Of a stretch of 64,000 nt of DNA, positions 25,454-63,563 are shown piece after piece. The stretch's first letter is position 1. Each line of letters opens with the position of its first letter. The position numbers were made by a program, and so were the translations under genes. Below the pieces are notes generated by a model. That model was not told the DNA's origin, searched no databases, and saw only the letters and a program-made list of their open reading frames with translations. Origin of the DNA: Oscillospiraceae bacterium (GTDB taxonomy: Bacteria > Bacillota > Clostridia > Oscillospirales > CAG-382); the NCBI GenBank assembly GCA_015064955.1, contig SVRD01000002.1, positions 14,188 to 78,187 on the forward strand, in the 5' to 3' direction.

Positions 25454-25515
25454 TTCTGCGGTGTTCTCCTTATTTATTTTCGTGAATAATGGGGCTGTTT
25501 TCACAGCCCCGATAA

Positions 25516-26729: not shown

Positions 26730-26843
26730 AACAACACCAATTTGCAAAAATTTTGATTACATTTCCGTGTGTTCACACAGCAAACCGCTCCGCTCACACT
26801 CATAAGATAAAATTCCATAAAAATCGGCGACATACGCATTTTG

Positions 26844-26876
26844 CCCCAAAACATAAATGTTTTCGGGGAGCCCGTT
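26844..26876. repeat. Mini-palindromic dispersed repeat (related copy at 63505-63538)
   Basis: CCCCAAAAcataaatgTTTTCGGGGagcccgtt resembles the reverse complement of aacggggtCCCCGAAAAtcgtaagaTTTTTGGGG. Confidence 0.6.
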
Positions 26877-26922
26877 CGATTTTTCCACCTATGATGACCG
26901 CGAGCGACTTCAATAATAATCC

Positions 26923-27073
26923 ATATTTTTCAAGGACATGCGCCTTGAAAAATATACCTCAGAGCGCCGAGGATTCGGACAACGAACGAAGTGAGGCGCA
27001 CGAATCCTATGCGAATGAACGGCGCTCACAAAAACCGATTAAAATCGCGAGATTTTAATCGAGAGCGAAGCGA
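26923..27073 (-). repeat. Structured dispersed repeat, copy 1 (copy 2 at 42680-42816)
   Basis: 37 identical nt ATATTTTTCAAGGACATGCGCCTTGAAAAATATACCT; shared CACAAAAACCGAT..ATCGAGAGCGAAGCGA end; covarying stems. Confidence 0.85.
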
Positions 27074-27144
27074 AGCTTCTCGTGCAAAATGAAATGCTCT
27101 GCGCCGCTATGGACTGCTTAAAAGGATGAAATGACTGCTTAAAA

Positions 27145-28698: not shown

Positions 28699-28995
28699 GT
28701 TTGCCTCCATGATATATATTTTATCCCGAATACGCGCACAAGATCCGGCTGATAAGTTCGGCTCGTCCTGCAAAAACACAGTCTGCTTTGTTATTTCGCC
28801 GCAATAATGGCGCGGGCATCGGTATTCATAATAATTATACATATTTTCAACCCGATTGTAAACCCCTATTGCATAAAAATATATGTAAATATCTTTAAAT
28901 TTTTATGTCGCGCACGGCGCACAACCGCCTTGACAAGTCACGCCTTTATGATATAATAAAATCAGCCGCAGTGTTGCGGTTTTAAGGAGATTTCT

Positions 28996-30120
28996 ATGGA
29001 TATGATATATTTTGATTCCGCGGCGACCGCAAGGCCGTTTGACTGTGCGCTGACAGCGGCGGCAGAGGCTTATTCGGTCTACGGAAATCCGTCGTCGGTT
29101 CATTCGGCGGGGATAAAGGCAAAGGCTATTATCGAGAATTCGAGAAAAAGCATCGCTACGGCGCTTTACTGCAAGCCCGAGGAGATAATATTCACCGGCG
29201 GCGGAAGCGAAAGCAACAACCAAGCGATATTTGGATTGGCAAAGCTCCGCGCAAGGAGATCAAAAAGAATAATCACCACCGACAGCGAGCACCCTTCTGT
29301 CGCGCGTCCGATCGAAGCGCTCGAAAAGGACGGATTTGAAATAGTCCGTATTGCCACAAAGGGCGGCGAGCTTGATATTGATTCACTCCAAAAGGAGCTT
29401 GAAAACGGTGCGGCTTTTGTGAGCATTATGCTTGCCAACAACGAAACCGGCGCAAAATACGATATTGCCGCTGTCAGACGGGCAATCGACAGAAGCGGAA
29501 GCGGCGCGATATTCCACTGCGACGCGGTGCAGGGATTTTTAAAAACGGCAGATATACGCGAGATCGCGAAAAACTGTGATCTTGCAAGCATTTCGGCGCA
29601 CAAGGTCGGCGGACTGAAGGGTGTCGGCGCGCTGTATTGCAAAGGCGGAATCAAGCTGCCCGCGTTTATTTTGGGCGGCGGTCAGGAAAACGGGCTTCGC
29701 TCGGGGACCGAAAACGTCGGCGGTATCGCGGCGTTCGGGGTTGCCTGCGGAGAATTTACAAAGCACCGCGAGCATATAAGCAGTCTTTACAACAAAGCAG
29801 TCGGGCTTCTTTCTGAGGAAAGCGGCTTGATAACTCTGAATATCCCGAAAACGCACATTGATTCGATCCTTTCGGTTTCGGTAAAGGGTGTTCGGAGCGA
29901 GGTTATGCTCAACGCGCTGAATCTCCACAATATCTGCATTTCTGCGGGCAGTGCCTGCTCGGCAAGAAAGGGTCCGAGCGGTGCGCTTTCGGCATACGGG
30001 CTCTCAAAGGAAGAAATCGAGGGCACGGTAAGGATCAGCTTCGGTGCATACAATACCGTGGAAGAGGTTTGTCAGCTTGCGGAAAAGCTTATTACAACAG
30101 CCAAAAGGCTCAAGAGGTAG
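28996..30120 (+). CDS. Cysteine desulfurase (NifZ/IscS-type, ThiI-associated)
   Basis: YFDSAAT, GNPSS, HCDAVQ, SAHKVGG, RSGTEN, SAGSACS. Confidence 0.92.
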   Translation: MDMIYFDSAATARPFDCALTAAAEAYSVYGNPSSVHSAGIKAKAIIENSRKSIATALYCKPEEIIFTGGGSESNNQAIFGLAKLRARRSKRIITTDSEHPSVARPIEALEKDGFEIVRIATKGGELDIDSLQKELENGAAFVSIMLANNETGAKYDIAAVRRAIDRSGSGAIFHCDAVQGFLKTADIREIAKNCDLASISAHKVGGLKGVGALYCKGGIKLPAFILGGGQENGLRSGTENVGGIAAFGVACGEFTKHREHISSLYNKAVGLLSEESGLITLNIPKTHIDSILSVSVKGVRSEVMLNALNLHNICISAGSACSARKGPSGALSAYGLSKEEIEGTVRISFGAYNTVEEVCQLAEKLITTAKRLKR

Positions 30121-30123
30121 ACA

Positions 30124-31293
30124 ATGAAGGAAGTATTGCTTTTAAAATACGGCGAAATCGTGCTGAAGGGGCTCAACAGAGGCTATTTCAACTCGGTGCT
30201 CGAAAGCCGAGTTAAGCGCGCACTCAAAAACGTTCAGGGCGAATTTTACTATGATTACGCGCAATCGACTCTTTGCATAACCCCCTCTGACGATGCGGAT
30301 ATCGACGCCGCATACGAGCGGGTGAAAAAGGTTTTCGGCGTTGCAACCGTTTGCCGCGGTATCGCTTGCGAAAAGGATATGGACGATATCCAAAGCAAGC
30401 TTGCCGAAAACGTCGATTTTCTGCTCGGCAACGCAAAGACGTTCAAGTGCGACGCGAAACGAAGCGACAAGAAGTTTCCGCTGAAATCGCCCGAGATCTG
30501 CGCGATCTGCGGCGGAACCGTGCTCGAAAACCGCCCCGATATGAAGGTCGACGTTATCAATCCCGAGCGTGTTATCACGATAGAGATCCGCGACCGCCAA
30601 GCGTTTATTCACGGCAACGGCGAAAAGGGCGCGGGCGGTGTTCCCGTCGGCTCGTCGGGCAGAGCGATGCTTATGCTTTCGGGCGGTATCGACAGCCCCG
30701 TTGCAGGTCATATGATCGCGCGGCGCGGTGCGGCTATCGACGCGGTTTATTTTGAAACTCCGCCCTATACGGGCGAAGCCGCCGCGATGAAGGTCCAGAC
30801 CCTTGCCGAAAAGCTCACCGAATACTGCGGAGAGATCTATCTCCACTCGGTTTCGCTGACCGAGATTCAGGAAACTCTCGTTTCGACCTGCAAGGAAAGG
30901 CTTTTCACCCTTCTTCTCAGACGTTTTATGGTCAGATGCGCCTCGAAAATAGCGAAAAAGTACGGTGCGGGCTGTCTTATCACCGGCGAAAGCTTGGCTC
31001 AGGTTGCGAGTCAGACGATGCTTGCACTCGGAGTGACCGACGCCGTTTCCGAGCTTCCGATATTGCGCCCCTGCATCGGGCTCGACAAGGAGGAGATCGT
31101 TGTCCGCGCACGCGAGATCGGAACATTTGAAACCTCGATACTTCCCTATGAGGACTGCTGTACCGTATTCACTCCCAAGCACCCCGACACACGTCCCGAT
31201 ATGGCAGAAATTCTCGAAGAGGAAGCCAAGCTCGACGTAGATGCGCTTGTAGAACGCGCACTCGCGACAGACAGATTTATAAAGCTCGGCTGA
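30124..31293 (+). CDS. thiI: tRNA 4-thiouridine synthase
   Basis: YGEIVLKG.NR, THUMP domain, LSGGIDSPVA, TGESLAQVASQT, EDCC. Confidence 0.94.
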   Translation: MKEVLLLKYGEIVLKGLNRGYFNSVLESRVKRALKNVQGEFYYDYAQSTLCITPSDDADIDAAYERVKKVFGVATVCRGIACEKDMDDIQSKLAENVDFLLGNAKTFKCDAKRSDKKFPLKSPEICAICGGTVLENRPDMKVDVINPERVITIEIRDRQAFIHGNGEKGAGGVPVGSSGRAMLMLSGGIDSPVAGHMIARRGAAIDAVYFETPPYTGEAAAMKVQTLAEKLTEYCGEIYLHSVSLTEIQETLVSTCKERLFTLLLRRFMVRCASKIAKKYGAGCLITGESLAQVASQTMLALGVTDAVSELPILRPCIGLDKEEIVVRAREIGTFETSILPYEDCCTVFTPKHPDTRPDMAEILEEEAKLDVDALVERALATDRFIKLG

Positions 31294-31328
31294 CGACCCC
31301 GAAAAACGACATTAAACGGAGGCTGTAA

Positions 31329-31907
31329 ATGAAATCACTTATAAACAGACTGAAAAAGCAAGATAAAAAAATCGCCGTCGCAGAATCCTGCACAGGCGGA
31401 CTTATCTCCAAAATGATAACCGACACCCCCGGTGCAAGCGCGGTTTTCAATATGGCTGTCACCACCTATTCCAACGAGGCAAAAACAAAGCTTTTGGATG
31501 TTTCGCCCGAAACACTCAAGAATCACGGCGCTGTTTCGGAGCAGACCGCGCGTGAAATGGCATCGGGAATACTCGCGCTGGCGGAATCGGATATCGCGGT
31601 CGCGGTGACCGGAATCGCAGGTCCCTCCAACGACGGCAGTCAAAAGCCTGTCGGCACGGTATGCATCGGCGTTGCGACAAAGGAAAAATGCTATGCAACC
31701 ACCTTTGTTTTTGCGGGAAGCCGTGCACAGATCCGCAGAATGACGGCAAAAATGGCTTTGAATATGGCGTACAGTGAGCTCGGTCCGAGCAAAAGAGCTC
31801 CCTTTCGCACGAAATCAAAAAAGAGAGATACTATTAAAAACGGCGCCGGCAAGGCTGTTAAGAAAACAAAGAACGCTATCGGAAAGCTTATTAAAAAGGA
31901 CAAATAA
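31329..31907 (+). CDS. CinA C-terminal / PncC NMN deamidase, with Lys-rich C-terminal extension
   Basis: AESCTGG, TYSNEAK, GAVS, TGIAGP, KPVGTV. Confidence 0.88.
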   Translation: MKSLINRLKKQDKKIAVAESCTGGLISKMITDTPGASAVFNMAVTTYSNEAKTKLLDVSPETLKNHGAVSEQTAREMASGILALAESDIAVAVTGIAGPSNDGSQKPVGTVCIGVATKEKCYATTFVFAGSRAQIRRMTAKMALNMAYSELGPSKRAPFRTKSKKRDTIKNGAGKAVKKTKNAIGKLIKKDK

Positions 31908-31922
31908 CGAAAGGGTAAAATC

Positions 31923-32855
31923 ATGTTCAGAATCGGCACAGTTAACATCGACACATCGCACGCTCCCTCATTCGCGGAAATTCTCGAAAAGGGTGACGAG
32001 GGCCGTTATACCGCGATCTATAACGACGCATTCAGAACCGACGACGAGGTAAACAGCTTTATCGAGCGATTCAAGCTCGACAAAAGGTATTATGACCTTT
32101 CGGAAATGGCAAAGAATATTGATATTGCCTTTATTCAAAGCTGTAATTGGGACAATCATCTGAAGCAGGCGCTCCCCTTCATCGAAGCAAATATCCCCGT
32201 ATTTATCGACAAGCCGATCGCCGGCAATCTCAAGGATATCCGCGAGTTCGAGCGGCTCGATGCCGAGGGCAAGGTGATTCTCGGCACCAGCGCGATGCGC
32301 TATACCTATGAGCACGAATCGTTTTTTGCCATTCCCGAGGAGGAAAGAGGCGAAATTATTCATATTTCGGTTATGGTCGGTGTTGACGAATTCAACTACG
32401 CTATCCACGCGGTCGAATCTATTATGGGCTTTGTCGGCGACGTCAGTCCGATCTCGACACGTTACCTCGGCACAAACACGGTAAACGGTGCCGATTGCGA
32501 CAGCTATTATATTCTTTTCGAAAACGGAATTTCCGCCTGCTACCACATCTGCAAAAAATGCTGGCAGCCCTCCACCGCGCTCGTTATGACAAGCAAAACG
32601 AGCTTTGCATATAAGATCGACAGCAGCAAGGTCTACGAGGCAATGCTGAAGCAGGTCTGCGCTTATATGGCAGGCAGAGAAAACAAGCTTGCAAGCGTGA
32701 AGCAGATGACCGATTCGATAAAAATAATGCTCGCAGGAAAGAAGAGCGCGGCAAACGGCGGCAACGCAGAGCTGATTTCCGAGCTTTGCGAAAGCGACCC
32801 TTCGTTTGACGGAGGCGTTTTCGAGGAATTTTACGCCGCATCGCAGAGAAAATAG
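31923..32855 (+). CDS. Gfo/Idh/MocA-family oxidoreductase
   Basis: DTSHA, PVFIDKP, SAMRY, YAIHAVE. Confidence 0.8.
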   Translation: MFRIGTVNIDTSHAPSFAEILEKGDEGRYTAIYNDAFRTDDEVNSFIERFKLDKRYYDLSEMAKNIDIAFIQSCNWDNHLKQALPFIEANIPVFIDKPIAGNLKDIREFERLDAEGKVILGTSAMRYTYEHESFFAIPEEERGEIIHISVMVGVDEFNYAIHAVESIMGFVGDVSPISTRYLGTNTVNGADCDSYYILFENGISACYHICKKCWQPSTALVMTSKTSFAYKIDSSKVYEAMLKQVCAYMAGRENKLASVKQMTDSIKIMLAGKKSAANGGNAELISELCESDPSFDGGVFEEFYAASQRK

Positions 32856-32863
32856 ATCGCTTA

Positions 32864-33120
32864 CGCTCCGACTTTTGAAAAAGTCGGACAAAATCTTTTT
32901 CCTCCCGCTCAAACTTTTAAAAAAGTTTGACAAAAATTTTATCCTCCCGCGTTTCAGGGTTATAACATTTGTATCGCTCACACCGCGAGGGTGTTTTGTA
33001 CTTCAAACTCAAAAAACAAAGCCACGTTGTTTTAACGTGGCTTTCTTTTTTGTTTTTATTCTGTTTTAAGAGTTTTTGGGGAGAGCACGAGAGGACCTTT
33101 TTGCAAAAAGGTCCTCTCGT
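32864..33120 (-). repeat. Multi-hairpin 3' trailer of dockerin gene A (homologous to 63260-63563)
   Basis: Palindrome CGAGAGGACCTTTTTGCAAAAAGGTCCTCTCG, terminator GCCACGTT..AACGTGGC, a 58-nt block (56/58 identical to 63386-63443) and two 42-bp hairpin units. Confidence 0.85.
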
Positions 33121-33133
33121 AATAATATCGTTA

Positions 33134-34747
33134 TTAGCCTATTGTATAAGTGCCGAAGTAGTGGCGCTTGATGAGGATATAGTCGTACTGATTTACTGTG
33201 CCGTCGGAGTTGACGTCGGCGGGGAGCAGTTCGTTATCGGTGAGATAACGTGTGCCGAAGTAGTGGCGCTTGACGAGGAGGTAGTCGTACTGATTGATCG
33301 CTCCGTCGTCGTTAACGTCTCCGAGAGTGTATTCGGGCTCGGGAACAACGGGCTTGTCCTCGGCGGGATTGCGGAGAACCTCTGCCTCGTCGATCCAGAT
33401 GAACGAATTGCCGCCGCTTGGGGTGACGGTAAATCGGATATAGCGTGCTGTGTTGACGGTATCGGAGATTGCGGTGAAGGTATACATCACGGACTGTGAT
33501 CCGTCGATAACCTTACCGTCGTGAAGCTTTTCCGCCTTTGTGCAGACAGCGAGCTCCTCGCTGAAGTTGATCGCATCATCCGAAACGGCGACGCTCATCT
33601 TTGCAGGGGCTGATATTCCCCAGAATCCGCCCGCCGCATAGAGTCGGTAAACGTTGGAGTCCTTTGCGCTGCCGAGGTCGATGGTAATTTCCAAAACACC
33701 GCTTTCGGTCTTGTTCCAGCCCGAATAGAAGCTTGTTCCGGGGTCGGTTCCGCCCTTTATGCCGTCGACAAGGCGCAAGCCGTCGTCGTTGTGTGCGTTG
33801 CCGCTTCCGCGGTTGGGAGCGGTGGTGGTATATTTCGCGCCGCGGGAAAGAATTATTTCGTTTTCAAATATCATTTCGTAGCTCGCGCCGTCGGTAAGCG
33901 ATACCGCGATATCGTCACTTTTGCTGTTACAGCCGAGATGCGAAGGGGTGGAAAGAATAATATTTGCGCCGCTTGCGCCGATATAGTCCTGACTGCCGAT
34001 AAGGTTGCCGTTTTCGTTTTTGTAATTAACGGTAACGCTCGCGGTGTTTACACCGTCGTAAACCGCGCGGAGATAATTCGCGATACAGTCGGCATAGAGC
34101 TTATGTCCCTCGACAGTTTGATGGATACCGTCGGTGCTGACGTAGGTCGATACACCGCGTTTTGTGATCTCATAATTGATATCGACGAGACCGCAACCGT
34201 ATTCAAGCGCGATCTCGCGCATTTCGTTACAGTATTCGTCCATTAGTCCGTATTCGTAGTTGTTGTATTCGGTAGGTTTATATGCCTCCTCATATACGGG
34301 ATTGGGTGTAACGAGGATAACGTCGGTGCCGATAGTCTGAAGCTCTCTTATAAAATGAACGAGCTGAACTCTGTATCTGTCGAGAGTCTGAATAGGGCGG
34401 TTGTACTGAACCTCCCACGCCTGATCGTTCATACCGAAGCAGATAATAGCGATATCGGGGGCTTTTGAAAGCACGTCGTTTTCAAAGCGCAGATATGCGT
34501 TGTAGGTCGAATCGCCGCGAACGCCCGCGTTGATGATCTCTGCTCCCGAAAAAGTATCTTGGAGTATGTCGGGGTAGGTATCGAGTCCCTGATTGTTCCA
34601 CCAGACAGTGCCTTGCGTGAGGCTGTCGCCAAACGCGATTATCTTCTTGCCGTCGAGCGCGCTTGCGGCACTCGAATAAACGGGAATGCAGAAAACGAGC
34701 AGTGCCGAAACGAGAAGAAGCGAAACGATTCTTTTGATACGGTTCAT
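33134..34747 (-). CDS. Secreted SGNH/GDSL esterase + discoidin (F5/8C/CBM32-like) module + C-terminal dockerin
   Basis: Signal peptide; FGDSLT, NAGVRG, FGMND, DGIH; EITIDLG...ARYIRF...WIDEAEV; duplicated DVNxDGxxNQYDY. Confidence 0.85.
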   Translation of the reverse strand: MNRIKRIVSLLLVSALLVFCIPVYSSAASALDGKKIIAFGDSLTQGTVWWNNQGLDTYPDILQDTFSGAEIINAGVRGDSTYNAYLRFENDVLSKAPDIAIICFGMNDQAWEVQYNRPIQTLDRYRVQLVHFIRELQTIGTDVILVTPNPVYEEAYKPTEYNNYEYGLMDEYCNEMREIALEYGCGLVDINYEITKRGVSTYVSTDGIHQTVEGHKLYADCIANYLRAVYDGVNTASVTVNYKNENGNLIGSQDYIGASGANIILSTPSHLGCNSKSDDIAVSLTDGASYEMIFENEIILSRGAKYTTTAPNRGSGNAHNDDGLRLVDGIKGGTDPGTSFYSGWNKTESGVLEITIDLGSAKDSNVYRLYAAGGFWGISAPAKMSVAVSDDAINFSEELAVCTKAEKLHDGKVIDGSQSVMYTFTAISDTVNTARYIRFTVTPSGGNSFIWIDEAEVLRNPAEDKPVVPEPEYTLGDVNDDGAINQYDYLLVKRHYFGTRYLTDNELLPADVNSDGTVNQYDYILIKRHYFGTYTIG

Positions 34748-34895
34748 AAAAATTCTCCTTTTCAATAAATGACGAAAAGCATTTTCCACAGTATACCACA
34801 CAAAAATCAAACTTTCAAGAAGATAAAAGCAAAGAAAAAACGCCTTTGAGTCCTTCAGAGTCCTTCAAAGGCGTTATTTTTTATTAAAAAGACGG

Positions 34896-35723
34896 TTACG
34901 CTTCCGCTGTGCTTTCTTCCTTTTCGCAAAGCTTTGCCGAGCTGAGCTTTACCGCAATATAGACTGCCAACGCGAGATCGACGATCGAATACGCGGTGTA
35001 ATAGTTGAAAACAAACGTACCGAAGCAGTGCAAAACAAGATTCGGAAGCGAATAAACAAACAAGAAATAGATCGCAACGTAGCCGAACGCTGTACAGCTC
35101 GATGCCGAGGTTTCGGATACGTAGGATTTGCCTTCGCAAAGGAAATAGAGCAATACCGCAACAAGACCGACTATATGGTAAGCGCCCGACGACGCAAGCG
35201 GTGCGGCACTTGAACGGATAAAATCGCCGAGAAGGCGGAAGGTCGAAAGCAAAATGGGAAGAAGCGCCGCGAGAGCGTGGAGCTCCTGCTTTTTACATTC
35301 CTTGTGGTAAAAAAGACCCGAATAGAGAAATTTAAATGCCGAAAGGAAAGTAAAAACAAGCACACAGCCGCCGATAACTGTGGGGAAAATATACTCTCTT
35401 TCCAAAAGCGACATAACGTATATTACGCCCGCGCCGATCAGTGCAAAGCCCAAAATCAGCGAACCCGCAGGAACAGCGCCGTAGGAGCGGCAAAAGCTGA
35501 TTGTTTTCTTCTTGCCGAGAGTAAAAGCAGAATAGATAAATACCAGAACGAACAATATCGTTACGGCGGTAAAGGCTTTTACCTCGAGTGTGTCGGGGAG
35601 ATAGTACGTGTCGGTATCGACGGCGTTCTTTTCGAGCTCAAAGGTGATGATAACAAGACGCAGTAACGCCATTATCAGCGATATTACCGTGACCGCAAGA
35701 ATTCTCATCTTTTGCGAACGCAT
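34896..35723 (-). CDS. Hypothetical polytopic membrane protein
   Basis: 275-aa ORF with about 8 hydrophobic segments; RBS AAGGAG. Confidence 0.7.
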   Translation of the reverse strand: MRSQKMRILAVTVISLIMALLRLVIITFELEKNAVDTDTYYLPDTLEVKAFTAVTILFVLVFIYSAFTLGKKKTISFCRSYGAVPAGSLILGFALIGAGVIYVMSLLEREYIFPTVIGGCVLVFTFLSAFKFLYSGLFYHKECKKQELHALAALLPILLSTFRLLGDFIRSSAAPLASSGAYHIVGLVAVLLYFLCEGKSYVSETSASSCTAFGYVAIYFLFVYSLPNLVLHCFGTFVFNYYTAYSIVDLALAVYIAVKLSSAKLCEKEESTAEA

Positions 35724-35817
35724 ACTCTTCTCCTTTCAAAGCTTTGCTTTTCTTTATTATAATCGCGCAAACCGCCTTTGTAAAGCGCAAACGCCATTTT
35801 TAACATTTTCTTTACTT

Positions 35818-36549
35818 TTAAATTTCGGGCTTAAAGCATGGCATAAAGCTCAGCTTGAACAAATTCGCCTTGTGCCTTTTATCGATGATCTCCTTTGTTT
35901 TCAAATCGTCGATGATTCCGGTTCTGATGTATTTGTCGAGAGTTTCGTAGGAAAAACCGAGGTTTTCCTCGTCGCTTTTCCCGCAAAGCCCGTCGATAGG
36001 TGTTTTTTCGACAAGCTCATAGGGCAGACCGAGCAAATGTCCGATCGCCTTTACCTCGGTGACCGTAAGAAACGACATCGGCGAAAGATCGCCCGCCGCA
36101 TCGCCGTAGCGGGTGGAATATCCGACCCAATCCTCCGAAAGATTGCAGGTGTTGACAACCCTGCCGTTTCGGCTTTGGGACACCGCATAAAGTGTCGACA
36201 TTCTGATTCTCGGAGGGAGATTCACTTTCGACTGCTCGCAAAGCGGGAGCGATTTTGGAATAGCGTTTACGACCGCGTCGACCGCTTCCTTGATATTCAC
36301 GGTATAATGCTCGATTCCGAGATGCTCGACAAGGCGGTATGCCATATCGATATCCTCCTGAACGCCGTTGGGCATAAGCACGCCGATAACTCTTTCTTTT
36401 CCGAGTGCTTCGACACAAAGCGCCGCGGCGACCGAGCTGTCCTTTCCGCCGGAGATTCCGATAACGGCGTTACAGCCCTTTCCGTTTTCCTCGAAAAAGT
36501 CTCTTATCCAGCGGACACAATCGTTTTTTACCTTTAAAGCATCGAACAT
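35818..36549 (-). CDS. nadE: NH3-dependent NAD+ synthetase
   Basis: GISGGKDSS, RIRMS.LY, NLSE..VGYST.YGD, SDEENLG. Confidence 0.92.
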   Translation of the reverse strand: MFDALKVKNDCVRWIRDFFEENGKGCNAVIGISGGKDSSVAAALCVEALGKERVIGVLMPNGVQEDIDMAYRLVEHLGIEHYTVNIKEAVDAVVNAIPKSLPLCEQSKVNLPPRIRMSTLYAVSQSRNGRVVNTCNLSEDWVGYSTRYGDAAGDLSPMSFLTVTEVKAIGHLLGLPYELVEKTPIDGLCGKSDEENLGFSYETLDKYIRTGIIDDLKTKEIIDKRHKANLFKLSFMPCFKPEI

Positions 36550-36582
36550 TTTGTTCCTCCGCATTATTTCGATAAACAGTTA

Positions 36583-38199
36583 TCAGTGAGCGTATTCGAG
36601 AGTTGTGCCGTTGAAGAAAAATTCGAGAATATACTTATAGCTGTAACCGTCCTTGGAGAGCTTTTCGCTTCCGGTTGCCGAGAATCCGACACCGTGGCCG
36701 ACACCCGAGCCGTTTACAGTAACTGTATCGGGGGTTACCGAGCTGCCCATTACGGTTTTGTAGCTCTCGCCGAAGCCGTCGAACTCCTCGATTCCGTTTG
36801 CGGTGAGAACGCTTGTCACGTTGCGCTCCTCGACGTTTCCGTTTGAAGTGAGCACTTTTGTCTTTGCCGAGAACTCAACGTCGAAATTCGCACTGCTGAA
36901 TCCGCAAGCCGAGCGCACGTCCTCGCTGGTTTCGATCTCTACTACGTTGCCGCTTCCGTCGCTTACCGAAAGAATGGTTATATAGCTCGAGCCGTAAGGA
37001 TCGGTCTCGAGTATCTTCATCGAGATCTCCTCGTCGGAAAGCTTCGAGAAGCTGTTGCGCGAGGTGAGATATTTATAAAATTCCTGCTTGGTGTATACTC
37101 TCTGCCACTTGTCGCCGTCCTCGTATTCCTCTTGGAAAACGGTGGTGAGATATGGCACCTCGGTGCCGCCCCAAGCCGCAACCGAAGAACAGCTTGCGCC
37201 GCCGTTGGAGTTGTGGTAGAGCACCATTATCGGTGCGCCCTTGTATGCGCAGAAAAGTCCGCGGGTGGCATCGACGATTTGATTGTTTTCCTCGCTCATA
37301 CGGTAAAGTCCGTGATAAACCTGACAGCACGCCGAGTTGGTGCAAACGTCAAATCCCTGCTTTGAGTGCTTTGCATAGAGCGGAACGGTTCTTGCGAGCA
37401 CGGCAAACGCCTTTCTCGTTTCGACCGAATAATTCGTGCCGATCTCGTTTGCCATAACACACTTGGTGTAATCCTCGAGACCGATGATATTTTCCATCCA
37501 CAAGCGTCCGTCGCGGACAGAATATTCAAAAATGCCGCTGTAATCGTAATAGTTGATGCTTCCCGAGCGGTGACGCATCGGAAGATTGACCGCACCGCCA
37601 TTCTGTGCACGGAGCGCAAGCGGCTTGCCGTTTTCGATGCTTGCGATTATCTTGCCGTCGGAAGAGAGGATAAAGATATTGCTTGCCGAGGGAGAAGCAA
37701 CACTTCTTCCGCCCGAAGCCTTCTTTGCCGCTTCGGCACTGTTCGAGGAATATGCGCGCGCCTCGTAACCGCCGTTTACGACAGCAACAAAGCCGTTTTT
37801 GCTCTTTGCCGCCGACAATGCCGACGAATAGCTCGAAAATTTGCCGATGACTGCGCTGTATGCGCCGATATTGCCGTTTTCGTCGGCAACGCATTTGCCA
37901 TTTTCAAAACGGGAATTCACCTGGGGTACGATAATAATTGCTTTTTCGGAGAGCGAAAAGAGCTTCCGGAAGCTTTCGCCCTGAAGATATCCGAGCTCAA
38001 ATCCGTTTGCCGACTGATTGAGCGACGAAAAATGACGTGTATCGAGCAGGGAGGTGGTTACGTACATACCGACGCGAACGTTGGGCTCGTTATATACGAC
38101 TGTTTTTGCCGAAGCGGGAACAGCCGCCGCATACGCGCTTATGCAGAATACGATTGCCAGCGCGAGCGAGAGGAGGCGATTCAAGCTACGCGATCTCAT
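36583..38199 (-). CDS. Secreted SpoIID/LytB-domain protein (lytic transglycosylase-like)
   Basis: Signal peptide; LEDY..CVMANEIG, KAFAVLART, CCQVYHG, GHGVG.S, YKYILEFF. Confidence 0.85.
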   Translation of the reverse strand: MRSRSLNRLLSLALAIVFCISAYAAAVPASAKTVVYNEPNVRVGMYVTTSLLDTRHFSSLNQSANGFELGYLQGESFRKLFSLSEKAIIIVPQVNSRFENGKCVADENGNIGAYSAVIGKFSSYSSALSAAKSKNGFVAVVNGGYEARAYSSNSAEAAKKASGGRSVASPSASNIFILSSDGKIIASIENGKPLALRAQNGGAVNLPMRHRSGSINYYDYSGIFEYSVRDGRLWMENIIGLEDYTKCVMANEIGTNYSVETRKAFAVLARTVPLYAKHSKQGFDVCTNSACCQVYHGLYRMSEENNQIVDATRGLFCAYKGAPIMVLYHNSNGGASCSSVAAWGGTEVPYLTTVFQEEYEDGDKWQRVYTKQEFYKYLTSRNSFSKLSDEEISMKILETDPYGSSYITILSVSDGSGNVVEIETSEDVRSACGFSSANFDVEFSAKTKVLTSNGNVEERNVTSVLTANGIEEFDGFGESYKTVMGSSVTPDTVTVNGSGVGHGVGFSATGSEKLSKDGYSYKYILEFFFNGTTLEYAH

Positions 38200-38674
38200 A
38201 ATAGCCCCTCACAGTGAAATATGCAGTGTCACCCGTGACAAGTATCGCCCTGCGCGAGCTGCCCTCGGATGCAAAATAGATATGTCCGTATTCAAGAGAT
38301 TCGCCCGAGAAAAGCTCGGTATTCTCCGACATATCTGTAATACCCTCCCCGGAATCGTTGGAGGAGGTGACAGCGGCAGCGCCGCCGCCGCGATAGATGA
38401 TCTCGCTGTCGGCGGAAAGAATGATTATCTGTCCTTGTTTCAGCGAAATGTCCTCGTAAGCCGTTGTTACTGTAATACCGCCGTTTGCGGTAAGCTCGTC
38501 GATTATCTCCTGCTTCAATTCTTCCTTGAACTGTTGGAGATAGCCATAAGTGATCAGCGTGTCCGGATCGATCGTTGCCGACGACTCGTTCTTTGCGAAT
38601 GTATTTACCGCATAGAAGGGCACGACTGCCACAAGCAAAACGGCAAGAACAAGCAAAACGTTGATTTTCTTCAC
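38186..38674 (-). CDS. Conserved hypothetical exported protein
   Basis: GTG start after AAGGAG; signal peptide; DPLIT.xYL-like motif; overlaps the next gene. Confidence 0.65.
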   Translation of the reverse strand: MKKINVLLVLAVLLVAVVPFYAVNTFAKNESSATIDPDTLITYGYLQQFKEELKQEIIDELTANGGITVTTAYEDISLKQGQIIILSADSEIIYRGGGAAAVTSSNDSGEGITDMSENTELFSGESLEYGHIYFASEGSSRRAILVTGDTAYFTVRGYYEIA

Positions 38675-38992
38675 AGAATAATTCTCCTTAAAAATTTTTC
38701 GGGAGCGGTAAATAAAATGTGCGGTATTGAATAATATGCGTCTCCCGTCGGAAATATGCACGAAATGAAAGATATTTTTATGTGCGGAATAACCTAAAAA
38801 TCCATCGGTTTTCTGCAAGCGCAAGAATTTCCAATTAATATTATAACACACCTTGTCAAGTCCCATAGAGTGTAGTCGCACATAACGCACCGTCTATATC
38901 TTGGGTTTTGATTTGACGCTTTAGCAAGCCAAAACGTTTTTACAAACAAAAAGTCCGCGGTCGTTAAAAACCGCGGACAAGTTGACATTGTA

Positions 38993-40879
38993 TTAAAACT
39001 CAGAGAAATATTCGGGGTTGGGGTTAAAGAAGAATCGCTTTATCAGCAGATAATCGAGAGTGTCGATCCTGCCGTTGCCCGAAACGTCGCAGGCAACCGT
39101 TTGAAGCTCGGAAAGCTTCAAGGTACCCATATATGCACGCTTTGCCATAATATAATCGCCGACGTCGAGCACGCCGTTGCAGTTTATATCCCCCGCAATA
39201 CAGACCTTTGCGCTGTCGATAAGCTTGCCGTTTACCGCAAGCCGTACCTCACAGCCTGTCGTGACCCGAGCCGTCTGACCGAGCTCCTCGCCCTCGGGAG
39301 AAACAAGGGTTATACTCTGCTTGTCGAAATGCTCGGCGAAGGAATCGAAATTCAGCTTCCATTCGGTAACGTGAAGATATCCGTCGTCGTCGAGTCTGAC
39401 CGAGCCGCTCGACGAAATTATCTCGGCACGGCTGAAAAAGGTGGTATATTCAAGAAATACCCAGCCGACCGTTCCGTAGTAATCGGTCTTGCCCCAGAAG
39501 CCGTCGACCTCGGTGATCTCGATAATGCTTCCGTTGGAAAGGATCGAGAGCGATTCCGAAGCGGTGTTTGCTTCGGCGCGGAGATTCAGATTCGCCTTGA
39601 GCTTATAAAACCCAACCTCTTTTTTGGTGAGTATCACCTCGGAATCGGGGTAATTATAGGGCATATTTACATAAAGAATACCTCTTGAGCAGGCAGATGC
39701 AAACTGCTCCCAGGTATAACGTCTTGTCGAAACGACACAAGGCGAGGAAACCACGCCGTCGCCGCCCGCGTTGCCGTGGTATATGACGATAAAGTCCTCG
39801 TCCATCGTCAATATCGAAACCGAGTGGCCTGCCGCAAGGCGAACGTGCGCGCCGGGCGCCGCCTTCATAAGCAAAGCCTTGACCGAATTCGCCGTTACCG
39901 CGCCGCTCGAAAGCGAGCCGACGCTGTAATAAAGCGATTCGTTCATCGAATGGTCGATAAATCCGAAGCATTTCCAGAATATCATTCTCGCAAAGGCGAA
40001 GCACTGCGCGCCCAAAAGGTCGACCTCGCAGGTGGATTTCTGCCCCGTCGGGTAATACCGCATACAGTTGCAGTTGCCCACCGACTGTATACAATAGGTA
40101 GATGAGGTGTTATGGCAGGTGCACGCCTGACCGTTTTTCGAGAAATAGGTTCCGGGCATATGATTTTCGAGCGGGAGAGTTATGTTTCCGACCTGAACGT
40201 AGGGGCCGGAATAATCTCCGCTTGCCGCCGCGAGCGAAACTCCGTATTCCTCCTCGCCCGCCGCGATATCATCTTCTCTTTCGCTTCCGACAGTTGCGAT
40301 ATATTGATTATAAAGCTCGTTTCCGTCTGCAAACATTTCGTCGCCGCTTTCGGAAATATAGCTGTAATCGGGGTTTCTTTCAGCCCAGCGTATTTTTCCG
40401 TCGGGCAGAGGAACAAATCCCTCGATACCATCTCGTGTGAGCAAAAGCGTTTCGCCAAAAGCGTTGTCCTTTCGGTAAACGCTGTCGCCCTTTAAATACA
40501 TAATGCCGTTTTCGGTTACGTAAAGGCATTTTATTTCGGTATCAAAGCTGTAAACAATATCAAATTCGCTTCCGTCGGGCGAGCCGCAAAGAATATCGTT
40601 CCCCGAAACGAACCACAAAAGACCGTCGTGATAATTTATGTAGGCGGCATCGAGCTCGGCAAGCTTAAATGTTTCGCCGTCTTGTGAGCGTCTGAAAAGT
40701 GCGCCGTTTTCCGAAAAAACGGTGTCCCCGCCGACGTCGACGGCATAACCGCCATAAAGTATTCGGTCGTCAAAAATCGCAACCTTCTCACCGCCGCCGA
40801 CGGCAAAGAACGAAAGCGGAAGCACCGCAAGCACGGCACAAACACAAACGACCAACGAAACAATACGCCTGAGCATCAA
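38993..40879 (-). CDS. Secreted CHAP/NlpC-like Cys hydrolase + SH3b + dockerin
   Basis: Signal peptide; GAQCFAFAR...GHSVSI...VIYHGN (Cys/His); LNLRAEA...WGK.DY.G.VGWV (SH3b); GDINCNG..D..DY / CDVSGNGRID..DY dockerin. Confidence 0.7.
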   Translation of the reverse strand: MMLRRIVSLVVCVCAVLAVLPLSFFAVGGGEKVAIFDDRILYGGYAVDVGGDTVFSENGALFRRSQDGETFKLAELDAAYINYHDGLLWFVSGNDILCGSPDGSEFDIVYSFDTEIKCLYVTENGIMYLKGDSVYRKDNAFGETLLLTRDGIEGFVPLPDGKIRWAERNPDYSYISESGDEMFADGNELYNQYIATVGSEREDDIAAGEEEYGVSLAAASGDYSGPYVQVGNITLPLENHMPGTYFSKNGQACTCHNTSSTYCIQSVGNCNCMRYYPTGQKSTCEVDLLGAQCFAFARMIFWKCFGFIDHSMNESLYYSVGSLSSGAVTANSVKALLMKAAPGAHVRLAAGHSVSILTMDEDFIVIYHGNAGGDGVVSSPCVVSTRRYTWEQFASACSRGILYVNMPYNYPDSEVILTKKEVGFYKLKANLNLRAEANTASESLSILSNGSIIEITEVDGFWGKTDYYGTVGWVFLEYTTFFSRAEIISSSGSVRLDDDGYLHVTEWKLNFDSFAEHFDKQSITLVSPEGEELGQTARVTTGCEVRLAVNGKLIDSAKVCIAGDINCNGVLDVGDYIMAKRAYMGTLKLSELQTVACDVSGNGRIDTLDYLLIKRFFFNPNPEYFSEF

Positions 40880-40906
40880 TTTCCCTCCGTTTTAATCTTC
40901 CTTTTT

Positions 40907-40935
40907 ATCTTATCACACGATTCGACATTTTTCAA
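40907..40935 (-). promoter_or_regulatory. Putative sigmaA promoter with a Spo0A box in the spacer
   Basis: TTGAAA-17 bp-TAAGAT with extended TG; TGTCGAA (minus strand) at 40921-40927. Confidence 0.45.
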
Positions 40936-41024
40936 TAGTTTTCGCGGGTTGGAAACAAACACCTTTTTGTTATATTCCGCACCGAAAGCGAATATAGTTT
41001 TATAAAAAACAAAGGAATGTTGAT

Positions 41025-41882: not shown

Positions 41883-41942
41883 ATAATTCCCCCTGAAAAA
41901 GCAAACAATAGCATCGACAAAACACTTTCAGGGGGAAAACCT

Positions 41943-42677: not shown

Positions 42678-42679
42678 GG

Positions 42680-42816: not shown

Positions 42817-42853
42817 AGAATCTTTATTGTATATATAAACGAATCAAATATTT

Positions 42854-42878: not shown

Positions 42879-42894
42879 GAAATGCTTTTTATTG

Positions 42895-60040: not shown

Positions 60041-63000
60041 ATGAAACAGGCAAAAAGACTTCTCGCGCTCTTGCTTTGCGCGGTAATGATCGTTCCCTGC
60101 TGTATTTTTGCAAACGCCGCTTCGGTAAGTATGTCCGTTGCGACAAACTTCAACGTCACCTCGGGCGTTTCTTATGCAAAATACAACGTATACGGAAGCC
60201 AGAGCGGACACACCGAGGCTTGTACCGTTCTCGAATTTTCCACCGATGAGTATCTCCCCATGCCCTTTATTGCAAATGCGGGCTCTGCGGGATTGCTCAC
60301 CACACAGTACAGCACCGCTGTAAACAAATACGGCTATGAGGTTGCCGGCGTTATCAACGGCTCGTTCTTCGGCACGGCCGACGAAGCACTTATCGGCCAC
60401 GTCATCACCAACGGCGTTCTTACCTGCGCACACGTTGCCGATCCTATGGAAATGGTAACCTTCGATGCAAACGGCAAGATGCAGTCGGTCACAAGTACTC
60501 TTAACTCCTCACTCAACGTAAACGGCACCGTTTACACCAACGCGATCCACTACATCAACAAGCGTCAGGATTGCGCATGGGAAGGCGCGGCGGACAGAAT
60601 TTTCTATTTCGACACCTCCTGCGGCACAATCGCAGACACCACCGGCACAAACTACGAAATCCTCTTCAACAAGCTCGACAACACCAACCTTTCCGTTGGT
60701 CAGTCCCTTACCGGTCAGGTAGTTTCTGTCAAGACCGGTAATTCTTCCTCTATCGGAAGCAATCAGTTCGTTCTTTCGGTCAAGACCACCTCGGCTTACG
60801 CCGCATATATCAAGGATCTCAAGGCCGGCGATACCGTTACCATCACCATCAACGAAACCAACGCTTCCGCAAAGGCTGCGATGACAAGCGCGGTCGGCGC
60901 TATCACCAACGTCGGCTTCCTTGTAAAAGACGGTGTTGACCTTACTCTTACTCAGTCCTCCATCGGTACTCACAGCGTTACCGGCACCTATGCACGCTGG
61001 ACCGCATTCGGTCAGAAGGCAGACGGCTCTTACGTCTTCTTTACCTCCGAAGGCGGAAGCACCGGTGTTTCCTCCCGCTCGCTCACTCTGCGTGACGTTG
61101 CGGCGGCGATGATCAAGCTCGGCTGTGTAAACGTTATCCGTATGGACGGCGGCGGATCGAGTGCGATGTACGTCTCCAATACCGGCGGCGGCAGCCCCGG
61201 CTACGTTCAGTCGGCTTCGCGTGCGGTTTGCGACTCTATTCTTATCGTAAAGAAATCCAGCCTTGCCGACGCTAATCTTACCGCAGCGCTCAAAACCGCT
61301 ATCGCAGATGCAAAGGCTATCGTAGCGGCTACCCCCAACGCAAACCTTTCCGCTACTATCGCAGAGGCTGAAGCACTTATCAATTCCGGCGTTGTTATCG
61401 GCGCAGAAGCAAGAAGATATCTCCAAAAGCTTTCTGTTTCGGGCAAGAGCGGCCTTAAATCGCTTCTCGATTCCGCTCTCGCATTGAACTACTCGCTCTA
61501 CACCGAAGAAGCTCTCTCGGTACTCCGTTCTCATTACAACAAAGCATATAATGTATATTCCTCTTCAGACGCTACCGCAGACGAGGTTTCCGCAGCATAC
61601 AAATCGCTCAACGACGCGATGACTCTTACCGGCAAAAAGGTTCTCTCCACTCATAAATCCTATACTCTCGGCGGCACACTTCACAGCACGTTCGGCGACG
61701 ACGGTATCCGTCTTACCAACGGTGTGAAATCGCAATCCGCAGGCGGCGATGTCAAATTCTATTCCGGCTGGGACAAGGGCGCTGTTGCCGAAATCACGAT
61801 CGATCTCGGAAGCTCGCTTTACAGCGATACCTATACAGTTTACGGTGCATACGGCTTCTATGGCATTTCCGCACCGCAATCGCTCAAGGTTTCTGTCTCG
61901 AACGACGGCAAGAACTTCACCTCTGCCGGCACTACGACAGTTATCACCAACGTCGGCAACGGCGATGTTATCGACGGCGAGCAGTCGAAGCTCATCTCGC
62001 TTACCGTAAAGACCGCGTCGTTCAACAAGGCTCGCTACGTCAAGTTCGAGGTAACCCCCACTAACTTCATCTGGCTCGATGAGGTCGAGGTTATCGCAAG
62101 CAGTGTAAACAGTCTCCAAAAGGTCGGCAACGCAGTTATTTTCAACGGCTTCAACAGCTACGTTTATGACAGCAACTGCTTTATCTACACTCCCGACTTC
62201 GGCACACTTACCGCCGACAAGATCAACCACAGATACACAAAGAACGTTATCCTCACCAAGACGAGCGATCCCAACGCATACACCATTAAATCGATCAACT
62301 TCTACAACGGCTCGGCTCCCAACGTGACTCTCGCTTCAAACGAGATCATGATCGGCTGCCACAAGGGCGAATCTGCGGCAAGCGTTATCAGCGACAGCAT
62401 TTTCAGCGCGGCTGAGGTCGGCGATACCGTAAGATTCTACGGTGTAGATATCGCGAACAAGTTTATCAGCGCCTGCGCTTATGCAAAGGTTGAATCGGCA
62501 AGCGGCGACACTCCCGATATTCCCGACGTTCCCGACGTTCCCGATACTCCCACCTACGTCCCCTCCGATCCCAAACCCTTCTGGATCACCCACGTTAACG
62601 ACAACACCACCGAAGGCGCGGGCGTTATCTTCACTCAGGCTTACGAGGGCGCGGCTTGGTGGCTGCACGTTGCATTTGCTCCCACCGAAGAAAGCGGAGT
62701 TTATAAAATCGTAGCTATCTCCAACGGTCTCTCCTACGGCGACGCTACCCCGCTCTCTATCCCCTCGGGCGGTTTTGTCTGGGCTTCCAACTACGGTAAC
62801 AACTATCCCGAGCTCTACCCCGACGATCCCACCGGTATCGACTATACCTCGGACAACTGCACCAACGCGATCAACGACGCGGCTACTTGGACTGTCGGTA
62901 TGAGATTCTCGTTCAACGGATTTGATCCGCTCAACCCGACCGCTCCCACCACTACCCCGAGCACCAACTGGTACGATGATGCATACGTTTGCACCGCTAC

Positions 63001-63253
63001 CTACGTTACATATTCCCTCGCACCCGTCGATCCTCCCGTCAACCCGCCCGTAAGCGGCGCAAGCGGCGACGTTAACGCAGACGGCGCAATCAACCAGTAC
63101 GACTACATTCTCGTTAAGCGTCACTACTTCGGCACCCGTTGCCTCACAGATGACGAAATGCCCCGCGCTGACGTTAACTCCGACGGAATCGTAAATCAGT
63201 ACGACTACATTTTGATCAAGCGCCACTACTTCGGAACTTATACAATAGGCTAA
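60041..63253 (+). CDS. Large secreted phosphodiester glycosidase (NAGPA-like) + helical (FIVAR-like) + discoidin module + dockerin
   Basis: Signal peptide; INGSFF, ARWTAFG, MDGGGSS; EITIDLG...ARYVKF...WLDEVEV; PDIPDVPDVP linker; QYDY dockerin. Confidence 0.82.
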   Translation: MKQAKRLLALLLCAVMIVPCCIFANAASVSMSVATNFNVTSGVSYAKYNVYGSQSGHTEACTVLEFSTDEYLPMPFIANAGSAGLLTTQYSTAVNKYGYEVAGVINGSFFGTADEALIGHVITNGVLTCAHVADPMEMVTFDANGKMQSVTSTLNSSLNVNGTVYTNAIHYINKRQDCAWEGAADRIFYFDTSCGTIADTTGTNYEILFNKLDNTNLSVGQSLTGQVVSVKTGNSSSIGSNQFVLSVKTTSAYAAYIKDLKAGDTVTITINETNASAKAAMTSAVGAITNVGFLVKDGVDLTLTQSSIGTHSVTGTYARWTAFGQKADGSYVFFTSEGGSTGVSSRSLTLRDVAAAMIKLGCVNVIRMDGGGSSAMYVSNTGGGSPGYVQSASRAVCDSILIVKKSSLADANLTAALKTAIADAKAIVAATPNANLSATIAEAEALINSGVVIGAEARRYLQKLSVSGKSGLKSLLDSALALNYSLYTEEALSVLRSHYNKAYNVYSSSDATADEVSAAYKSLNDAMTLTGKKVLSTHKSYTLGGTLHSTFGDDGIRLTNGVKSQSAGGDVKFYSGWDKGAVAEITIDLGSSLYSDTYTVYGAYGFYGISAPQSLKVSVSNDGKNFTSAGTTTVITNVGNGDVIDGEQSKLISLTVKTASFNKARYVKFEVTPTNFIWLDEVEVIASSVNSLQKVGNAVIFNGFNSYVYDSNCFIYTPDFGTLTADKINHRYTKNVILTKTSDPNAYTIKSINFYNGSAPNVTLASNEIMIGCHKGESAASVISDSIFSAAEVGDTVRFYGVDIANKFISACAYAKVESASGDTPDIPDVPDVPDTPTYVPSDPKPFWITHVNDNTTEGAGVIFTQAYEGAAWWLHVAFAPTEESGVYKIVAISNGLSYGDATPLSIPSGGFVWASNYGNNYPELYPDDPTGIDYTSDNCTNAINDAATWTVGMRFSFNGFDPLNPTAPTTTPSTNWYDDAYVCTATYVTYSLAPVDPPVNPPVSGASGDVNADGAINQYDYILVKRHYFGTRCLTDDEMPRADVNSDGIVNQYDYILIKRHYFGTYTIG

Positions 63254-63259
63254 ATTTTC

Positions 63260-63563
63260 CGAGAGAGAACCTTTTGCAAAAGGTTCTCTCTCGTACTCTC
63301 TCTCCAAAACTCTTAAAAACACAATAAAACAAATTAAAATTGCCGCGTTATTTTAACGTGGCTTTCTTTTTTCTGAATTTGAATAACAAAACATCCTCGC
63401 GGTGTGAGCGATACAAATGTTATAACCCTGCAACGCGGGAGGAAAAAGCTTTTGTCCGACTTTTTCAAAAGTCGGAGCGGGAGGATAAAATTTTTGTCAA
63501 ACTTAACGGGGTCCCCGAAAATCGTAAGATTTTTGGGGGAATATCAAAAGTTTGAGAGGGAGG
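63260..63563 (+). repeat. Multi-hairpin 3' trailer of dockerin gene B (homologous to 32864-33120)
   Basis: Same ordered modules as the first copy; 42-bp units swapped; one unit carries an insertion. Confidence 0.85.

Follow-up and report, generated by a model that had tools for sequence, protein, structure and literature searches.

A gene-end hairpin with a covarying mirror tract behind dockerin genes of an Oscillospiraceae bacterium: a candidate triplex-type 3' element

Common to many bacterial genomes are extragenic palindromes that occur in many copies after genes, such as the REP/BIME elements and the 3' stem-loop stabilisers of messenger RNA (mRNA), which act as barriers to 3' exonucleases. 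Intrastrand triplex motifs are likewise abundant in bacteria, and we know of no function assigned to them; for the E. coli case, neither an orientation nor an association with genes is described. The type I dockerins of cellulosome-like systems are two-repeat modules with species-specific residues, carried at the C-termini of diverse secreted enzymes. These subjects come together in a stretch of 64,000 nucleotides (nt) from an Oscillospiraceae bacterium, here called the window (contig SVRD01000002.1 of assembly GCA_015064955.1, positions 14,188 to 78,187; C20:14188-78187 of genome G000 in our numbering), the source being a 1.76-Mb draft genome of 32 contigs that is 82% complete. Two enzyme genes of the window end in closely similar dockerins, and the likeness runs on past the stop codons into a trailer that consists, in gene direction, of a short linker, a hairpin element (M1), a terminator (M2), a 58-nt block followed by 42-nt units (M3) and, in one copy only, a small insert (M4). 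The most interesting outcome of the analysis is that M1 covaries in three strands. Overall, we think it probable, though well short of settled, that the homology has two layers, dockerin, linker and M1 forming one and M2, M3 and M4 a separate one, and that M1 is a 3' element of the triplex type.

The closest described motifs are those of Holder et al. 2015 (PMC4666352), and the parts of that paper drawn on here distinguish four classes of intrastrand triplex motif. Class III consists of a 5' purine block, a pyrimidine block and a 3' Hoogsteen pyrimidine block; it is a pyrimidine motif, the one class said there to form also in RNA. TM_ECO, which is the same as BoxC and PIT, is linked in those parts to local genome instability (Hoyne/Maher 2000 is cited there), and its consensus is given as CCCTCNCCC-N3-6-GGGNGAGGG-N3-GGGNGAGGG. 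In RNA, structures of the ENE/MALAT1 type place a pyrimidine-motif triplex of about 10 triples in the major groove near the 3' end and protect from decay (excerpts of PMC13541005, PMC4836648 and PMC6379651); the bacterial examples of RNA triplexes in the excerpt of PMC13541005 are riboswitches and a group II intron, and the word "terminator" is absent from that review. Our literature searches returned no earlier description of the M1 family, with the proviso that the supplementary ITxF tables of PMC4666352, which lay outside the search, could list motifs of related genomes.

M1 follows the stop codon at a distance of about 9 nt in the copy on the plus strand (copy B) and about 14 nt in the copy on the minus strand (copy A). 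Copy A, at 33063..33120, has its hairpin at 33087-33120, a 1-base linker, a CT tract at 33078-33085 that mirrors the 3' arm, and then AAAAACTCTTAAAAC; copy B, at 63260..63320, has the hairpin at 63260-63293, the linker TA, a CT tract at 63296-63305 and then AAAACTCTTAAAAAC. Both are matched by our covariance model R1, copy B at C20:77442-77509. The hairpin is of 15 bp and is far more stable than expected by chance, at -25.4 kcal/mol in copy A (z -7.4) and -18.0 kcal/mol in copy B (z -5.1), with 0/200 shuffles as stable in either case; these energies take in Watson-Crick and G-U pairs only. A preliminary description of this DNA had noted a near-perfect palindrome with a compensatory change, followed by a CT-rich spacer and a terminator, and all of this is borne out: the paired differences are GAGAGGACC/GGTCCTCTC in A and GAGAGAGAACC/GGTTCTCTCTC in B, the spacer is the tract, and the terminator stems lie at 33018-33044 and 63342-63362. 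The arm of copy B is longer than that of copy A by two GA steps, and its tract is lengthened likewise. Among 32 copies of the source genome, RNAalifold finds 15 M1 pairs, 11 of them with two-sided changes that keep the pair.

The hairpin is accompanied by a third strand. A purine-rich 5' arm leads into an upper stem of the form TTTT-loop-AAAA and back through a pyrimidine 3' arm; after a linker of 1-4 nt comes a second pyrimidine tract mirroring the 3' arm, and then AAAA(A)CTTT, a tail conserved across families. Being neither a copy nor a complement of an arm but the mirror image of the 3' arm, the tract has the same direction as the purine 5' arm, a C standing for each G of that arm and a T for each A. 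M1 subfamilies change in all three strands together: the 5' arms GAGAGAGGGG, GAGGGAGG, GAGAGAAAAC and GAGAAAACC go with the tracts CTCTCTCCCC, CTCCCTCC, CTCTCTTTTC and CTCTTTTCC, respectively, and GAGAGAGAACC of copy B goes with CTCTCTCTCC. In other genera the mirror is retained on other sequences (GGGGAAAA/CCCCTTTC, GGGGAGGG/CCCCTCCC and GGGGGAGA/CCCCCTCA).

The mirror was quantified on 158 elements whose arms and tracts were delimited with an RNAfold-based parser, 121 from relatives (the best-scoring among the matches listed) and 37 from the source genome, which give 128 unique arm/tract combinations. Over these combinations an element's own tract matches 933/1073 purine levels (0.870), against a mean of 0.782 and a maximum of 0.811 when tracts are permuted; 0/2000 permutations reach the observed value. 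At levels 5 and above the match is 0.832, the permuted mean being 0.708. The association of G with C and of A with T is found at levels 4, 7, 8 and 9 (p 4e-15 to 2e-5), with p values of 4e-15 at level 4, 5e-9 at level 8 and 2e-6 at level 9. Reading the tract instead as an alternative Watson-Crick partner or a direct copy of the 3' arm fits more poorly, the direct-repeat/antiparallel model scoring 0.705, and fails outright for arms like GGGGAAAA with CCCCTTTC. A further idea, in which the triplex would continue through the AAAAACTTT tail along the TTTT/AAAA upper stem, was set aside, the columns being invariant and covariation therefore uninformative.

Though richly represented behind dockerin genes, M1 is a general gene-end element, not special to dockerins, spread across the genus and sparse across the order. 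A profile search of the source genome (E <=1e-3) finds 38 non-overlapping places, of which 15 lie directly 3' of intact dockerin open reading frames (ORFs), 3 after short dockerin 3' remnants and 20 elsewhere. Model R1 matches 47 of the 61 genomes of the genus, with up to 82 matches per genome (84 candidates scored), and 10 of 120 other genomes of the order; among species of the one genus, the copy number runs from 0 to >80. With the whole trailer as BLAST query, 10/24 genomes of the genus give matches and 16 genomes from 16 other families give none; almost all of the matches cover M1, a few weak ones, in three genomes, falling in the M3-unit part. The element is in sense orientation with the upstream gene at 30 of the 38 places and within 60 nt of its stop codon at 26, typically a few to about 50 nt past it, and these counts are lower bounds because the simple gene caller mislabels some neighbours (C15:6390, for example). 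Where copies stand face to face between convergent genes (C31:18249 and 18412), each lies behind its own gene. Fourteen of the genes preceding a non-dockerin M1 were scanned and 12 gave a Pfam match, among them PNPase, GyrB, a pyridine-nucleotide disulphide oxidoreductase, kinases, a peptidase, MgtC, a symporter, ThuA, a Mn catalase and others; one of the upstream genes is thioredoxin-reductase-like. At C11:32801 M1 stands behind the PNPase gene, and at C20:106954 between gyrB and the next co-oriented gene; the element thus occurs also behind the gene of a 3' exonuclease and, possibly, inside an operon. A terminator-like site lies within about 200 nt downstream of 22/38 copies, the share being 16/18 for dockerin-linked copies and 6/20 for the others, as compared with 161/760 random windows.

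As far as the excerpted parts of PMC4666352 allow the comparison, M1 resembles BoxC/PIT/TM_ECO in being intergenic and multi-copy, in having three consecutive blocks on one strand with a mirror-symmetric Hoogsteen block and a short second loop, in a copy number that varies among close relatives, and in the rearrangements clustered nearby. The sense strand of M1 fits class III, whose block order is borne out by the 933/1073 matching levels, by the poorer antiparallel score (0.705) and by its retention in other genera; the antisense strand fits class I. With purine runs of 6-11 nt and a second loop of 1-4 nt, M1 falls inside the ITxF search ranges given there (stems 6-15 nt, loops 1-6 nt), but what would be its first loop consists of a further stem-loop, about 12-20 nt long, and lies outside them. 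TM_ECO, as the same excerpt has it, is G/C-rich, of class II, with 9-nt stems and a first loop of 3-6 nt, is without orientation bias and lies oftener upstream of ORFs. M1, in contrast, has arms of mixed G/A, a TTTT-loop-AAAA stem-loop for a first loop, sense orientation just past stop codons, the conserved AAAA(A)CTTT tail and a range confined to one order; it has another sequence and another block order than the TM_ECO consensus, without sequence likeness to it, and is alike in kind but not a member. The extended upper stem, the sense orientation after stops and the conserved A/U-rich tail would set M1 apart as a new family of intrastrand triplex motif.

With REP/BIME elements M1 shares the nature of a many-copy extragenic palindrome behind genes, but REPs have neither its purine/pyrimidine strand asymmetry nor a mirror tract. 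A RAYT/REP identity agrees with palindrome and copy number, while a search of the 82%-complete genome for PF01797 (Y1) found none; the idea was set aside. With Rho-independent terminators M1 shares the gene-end position and an A/U-rich run, but its T run starts only about 17-20 nt past the stem, and of the two only M2, where a T run comes directly after a G+C-rich stem, is picked out by the terminator scan. The ENE/MALAT1 triplex is proposed here as a functional analogy; as excerpted from the papers cited above, a U-rich internal loop of the ENE clamps an A-rich tail, whereas M1 would be a purine-pyrimidine-pyrimidine fold-back with many C+.G-C triples.

M1 is enriched behind dockerin genes. 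The source genome has 40 dockerin ORFs (PF00404; phmmer), and M1 follows 15 of these, as compared with 20 places for the other ~1,389 genes, a contrast for which Fisher's test returns an odds ratio of 41 (p 6e-16). A genome-wide search for enrichment behind genes of QYDY-type dockerins, as the preliminary description had suggested, finds M1 behind 15 of the 24 such genes; 25 of the 40 dockerin genes are without it. In these 15 genes the catalytic domains are unrelated to one another (GDSL, NAGPA, GDPD, CHAP, GH25, metallophosphoesterase and GHL10), and the mean pairwise identity of the genes is 0.29 upstream and rises to 0.82 from about -180, where the dockerin starts. Codon positions 1+2 of the dockerin stand at 0.90 and position 3 at 0.68; with 0.75-0.81 in the 60 nt that come next after the stop, the M1 region is better kept than synonymous sites. 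An SGNH gene at C16:8898 has orthologues in five relatives (66-83% amino acid identity over ~810 residues), the 3' end being visible in three of the five; in these three other species (G018, G062 and G052; 72-83% amino acid identity) the gene ends in a dockerin and M1. The dockerins of the orthologues are 0.73-0.82 identical in DNA, as against a mean of 0.83-0.93 to the paralogues in their own genome, and the linkers between stop and M1 are species-specific. On this sequence evidence, dockerin, linker and M1 form a unit that evolves in concert within each species. In relatives, 27/121 of the sampled M1 copies follow a dockerin, in 8/21 genomes. The dockerin enzymes here are GDSL esterases, NAGPA, GDPD, CHAP, GH25 and phosphoesterases, not cellulases, and, unlike in the cellulosome dockerins known to us, the likeness reaches into 3' untranslated DNA. 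No account of a dockerin 3' flank came up in the literature, where the dockerin searches matched loosely.

The two copies in the window illustrate this unit. Copy A belongs to a GDSL/SGNH esterase gene (Pfam; ORF 33134..34810, minus strand), whose dockerin part covers 33137..33322 (stop 33134-33136; PF00404 at residues 475-529); copy B belongs to a NAGPA-like gene that also encodes an F5/8 type C domain (Pfam; 60041..63253, plus strand), whose dockerin part covers 63065..63250 (stop 63251-63253; PF00404 at residues 1009-1062). With 48.8 bits (A) and 41.9 bits (B) against a cut-off of 22.9, both C-termini are type I dockerins. The 54/62 identical residues reported for the two 62-aa dockerins hold on a recount, and the claim that homology continues for some 260-300 bp past the stop stands: copy A (32864-33322, minus) and copy B (63065-63563, plus) align at 81.7% over 449 nt (BLASTN, E 1e-118), the onset being sharp, at the first dockerin codon, and about 250-300 nt of the homology lying 3' of the stop. 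A repeat search returns two pairs of arms, 33134-33323/63064-63253 in the coding part (190 nt, 85%) and 32881-33016/63369-63504 past the stop (136 nt, 86%). The third dockerin gene of the window (38993..40879), correctly described as free of such a trailer, has only a plain hairpin and T run downstream.

How M1 might act can be pictured in RNA. In the transcript the tract would fold back into the major groove of the hairpin, forming C+.G-C and U.A-U triples, and the clamped structure could contribute to making or shielding the 3' end of the mRNA, either by stopping 3' exonucleases or by assisting termination at the A/U-rich AAAAACUUU run past the tract. Dockerin, the short species-specific linker and M1 would be kept alike within a species by exchange among paralogues, through gene conversion or module shuffling. 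Taken to its full extent, the proposal would make M1 a triple helix at the 3' end of bacterial mRNAs, with 8-10 C+.G-C/U.A-U triples in succession, that sets or protects many 3' ends in this order, a group of spore-forming anaerobes, and is exchanged with dockerins in this genus; in that extended form we put it forward tentatively, and would sooner doubt than assert it.

Several points weigh against the triplex-type 3' element in a two-layered unit. About half of the triples would be C+.G-C, often in runs, and at neutral pH such triples hold only weakly. Within the dockerin subfamily seen most often (arm GAGAGAACCC, tract CTCTCTCCC), only 6/7 purine levels match and the final CCC stands opposite C-G pairs. 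The canonical terminator that stands within about 100 nt behind 16/18 dockerin-linked copies implies that M1 is not needed as a terminator there. The related TM_ECO is described, in the excerpt of PMC4666352, as without promoter or terminator activity and as giving no triplex signal in double-stranded DNA or in footprints in vivo. The permutation and Fisher tests count related copies as independent, so that their significance is overstated, and the recurrence of the mirror rule on unrelated arms in other families is for that reason the stronger argument. Moreover, the likeness of dockerins within a genome could partly reflect selection for the species' cohesin, not gene conversion.

If the fold forms in RNA, M1 would represent a new class of bacterial 3'-end element and would be among the longest natural RNA triplexes; on the extended proposal it could also tie the fate of an mRNA to cytoplasmic pH, cytosine having to be protonated in half of the triples. 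Three features make function testable, namely the co-change of three strands across genera, the sense orientation after stops and the retention at orthologous genes. For the dockerin system, the concerted evolution of dockerin and 3' flank bears on the recruitment of enzymes to cohesin-dockerin complexes, and, on the extended proposal, a newly tagged secreted enzyme would gain an anchor and a 3'-end element in one recombination event.

The best-surviving rival, which we still rate as unlikely, takes M1 for a selfish or structural repeat of the BoxC/PIT kind that works at the level of DNA and has no RNA role, forming an intrastrand or H-type triplex in single-stranded or supercoiled DNA; M1 would then promote rearrangement and sit behind genes only since insertions are tolerated there. 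The three-block layout is that of the intrastrand triplex motifs found in many bacteria and linked to genomic instability (from the parts of PMC4666352 used here), the repeat as read on the antisense strand would count among the class I purine motifs, stable at neutral pH, the surroundings of M1 are rich in insertions and duplications, and the wide range of copy numbers within the genus would also suit such a repeat. Against it speak the strong sense bias and tight spacing to the stop, where TM_ECO is reported without orientation bias in those same parts, the face-to-face copies each behind its own convergent gene, the M1 copies at orthologous positions in species with 72-83% identical proteins, and the tail conserved across families.

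The remainder of the trailer has a different history. M2 is an ordinary intrinsic terminator: in copy A it lies at 33008..33051 on the minus strand (stem 33018-33044), has a T run on either strand and folds at -23.4 kcal/mol (z -6.3), and in copy B the terminator scan places it at 63342..63372 on the plus strand (stem 63342-63362). The M3 block covers 32942..33004 in copy A (minus; 58-nt core 32942-32999) and 63386..63443 in copy B (plus); the two mismatches over 58 nt that had been reported are confirmed (96.6% identity), and the block is 95-98% identical in four dockerin trailers. The 42-nt hairpin units that had been described as common to both trailers, which combine GCGGGAGGA with an A/T stretch and a small hairpin, are indeed present in both, but in reversed order and with the last unit of B interrupted. 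In copy A two units (32864..32950, minus) leave a gap of 9 nt to the stop codon of 31923..32855, a convergent gene; in copy B (63435..63563, plus) the last unit is split by M4, a 41-nt hairpin-bearing insert in the unit loop (63505..63545, plus) that has no counterpart at the same place in A. M4 has 19 BLAST hits in the genome; this copy number and the insertion inside a hairpin loop are what is seen of it, miniature inverted-repeat transposable elements (MITEs) being defined by terminal inverted repeats and short target-site duplications.

The preliminary description had considered a portable dockerin-tagging cassette, in which dockerin and the whole ~300-nt trailer move as one discrete unit onto new enzymes, and this we hold to be improbable. 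In its favour, homology begins exactly at the dockerin and continues into the trailer, and the full M1-M2-M3 composite stands behind exactly four genes (A, B, C27:73973 and C17:39983), all of them dockerin genes. The histories of trailer and dockerin disagree, however. Trailer A is 95% identical to that of C27 over 261 nt, 89% to that of C17 and 82% to that of B, while dockerin A is closest to B (0.93 at codon positions 1+2, 0.69 at position 3) and further from C27 (0.87/0.61). The trailer past M1 has therefore spread or been homogenised independently of the dockerins, and the ~300-nt trailer has neither been inherited nor moved about as a single cassette. In addition, 11/15 dockerin-M1 genes are without M3 and continue differently: C16:8898 carries M1 and M2 only, and most of the others run on into a ~160-nt repeat (E2) that has 40 merged BLAST places in the genome, partial ones included. 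M3, M4 and E2 are present at many dockerin-free places, the unit is not connected with any recombinase, and a search of the 82%-complete genome for a Y1 transposase found none. What stands of the cassette is a dockerin-linked 3' unit that ends after M1, the rest being a mosaic of repeats; for annotation, such mosaics behind dockerin genes can pass for a dedicated cassette.

Recombination at dockerin 3' ends is shown all the same by dockerin 3' remnants of ~33-36 nt that lie downstream of four dockerin genes and flank an inserted, structured repeat of ~160-210 nt. This repeat is E2, seen at C16:11382-11580, C13:598-835, C21:27446-27113 and C25:36131-35750, in the last case twice in tandem. On either side of it the final 33-36 nt of the dockerin frame stand as direct repeats, unlike the usual short target-site duplication of MITEs, and the displaced copy keeps its own M1 or terminator. 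The arrangement suggests that E2 integrated at the conserved dockerin end, or that recombination passed through this end, and that the end of the gene was then restored. E2 also occurs within the window at 26915-27075 (plus) and 42690-42830 (minus), where it is intergenic, abuts the stop of a convergent gene in one case and has no Rfam match.

Outside the composites M3 is a repeat of another kind. Its family has ~13 members in the genome, with M3-like blocks at nine places besides the composites, and at 8/9 of these a co-oriented unrelated gene starts within ~150 nt downstream, the last GGGAG(G)A of the block serving as ribosome-binding site at several places. The M3 of copy B itself lies upstream of a cotJA/cotJB-like pair, the cotJA-like ORF starting near 63641. 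On the two-layer reading, M3 is a leader-type intergenic repeat normally found ahead of genes and M4 a small insert, M2, M3 and M4 having been spread or homogenised separately from the dockerins.

Equally improbable, in our view, is a shared post-transcriptional regulon in which M1 and/or M3, as an RNA module, co-regulates the members of one cohesin-dockerin complex, the second idea of the preliminary description. Its better part is the odds ratio of 41 for M1 behind dockerin genes, together with the dockerin-linked copies in relatives and the retention of M1 at orthologous dockerin genes in four species. But 20/38 copies lie elsewhere, behind PNPase, GyrB, kinase, peptidase, transporter and Mn catalase genes, and 25/40 dockerin genes do without M1; every module is also found away from dockerins, as had been named in advance as a sign against the proposal, although M1 does show the enrichment whose absence had been named with it. 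M3, for its part, comes only after a strong terminator, and its fold is no more stable than chance would give (z -1.7; 11/200 shuffles as stable). A conserved M3 structure was looked for and dropped, RNAalifold giving only a 6-bp clamp of -7.7 kcal/mol with 15 regex matches, one apparently spurious. A CsrA sponge acting through the repeated GGGAGGA units of M3 was likewise discarded, with no CsrA (PF02599) or other CsrA-type titratable regulator found in the 82%-complete genome. Promoters were sought in M3 with a consensus scan: copy A has none, and copy B, which is A/T-rich, has 9-of-12 matches only. A stretch of the M3 block, TGTGAGCGATACAA, loosely resembles LacI/cre-type operators, with two mismatches to the consensus, and was set aside.

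An assembly artefact, with repeats collapsed or mis-joined in a 32-contig, 82%-complete draft from metagenome reads, is very improbable: tandem structures such as C25:36131 could be mis-assemblies, but the architecture recurs on 12 contigs and in 46 separately assembled genomes, and the copies differ.

Further repeats and genes of the region deserve brief mention. A search of the whole window against Rfam returned only a tRNA and no match to any trailer module; over 26700-43000, with E up to 1, two sub-threshold matches appeared, both on the terminator. At 42888-42964 an M3-like block takes the form of a long perfect hairpin (ACACTCTCGCGGTG...CACCGCGAGAGGTGT) beside a G/C hairpin GGGCGGGGGCTTGTCTCCCGCC, with no dockerin link, and tandem (AAAAGTGAAGAGTG)n-like repeats stand just upstream of several M3-like blocks (C14:150-190, C17:10470-10500 and C17:4830-4860). 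From 63641 to 64000 and beyond run the cotJA-like ORF (78 aa), the cotJB-like ORF and then a Mn-catalase gene of the CotJC type (C20:78330-78929), itself followed by an M1 variant with the arm AAAAGGGGC and the tract TCCCC; the source organism is probably a spore former. Another intergenic family (D2) is represented at 25211-25478, where an 85-nt direct repeat with CTCTCCGCGAGGATTTT at its core occurs three times. Finally, families D1 and D4 cover the repeats of a region that holds a 200-nt direct repeat at 50276-50475 and 51403-51602 (97% identity) and, at 50684-51298, four 45-nt repeats that read like coding repeats of the YD/RHS type.

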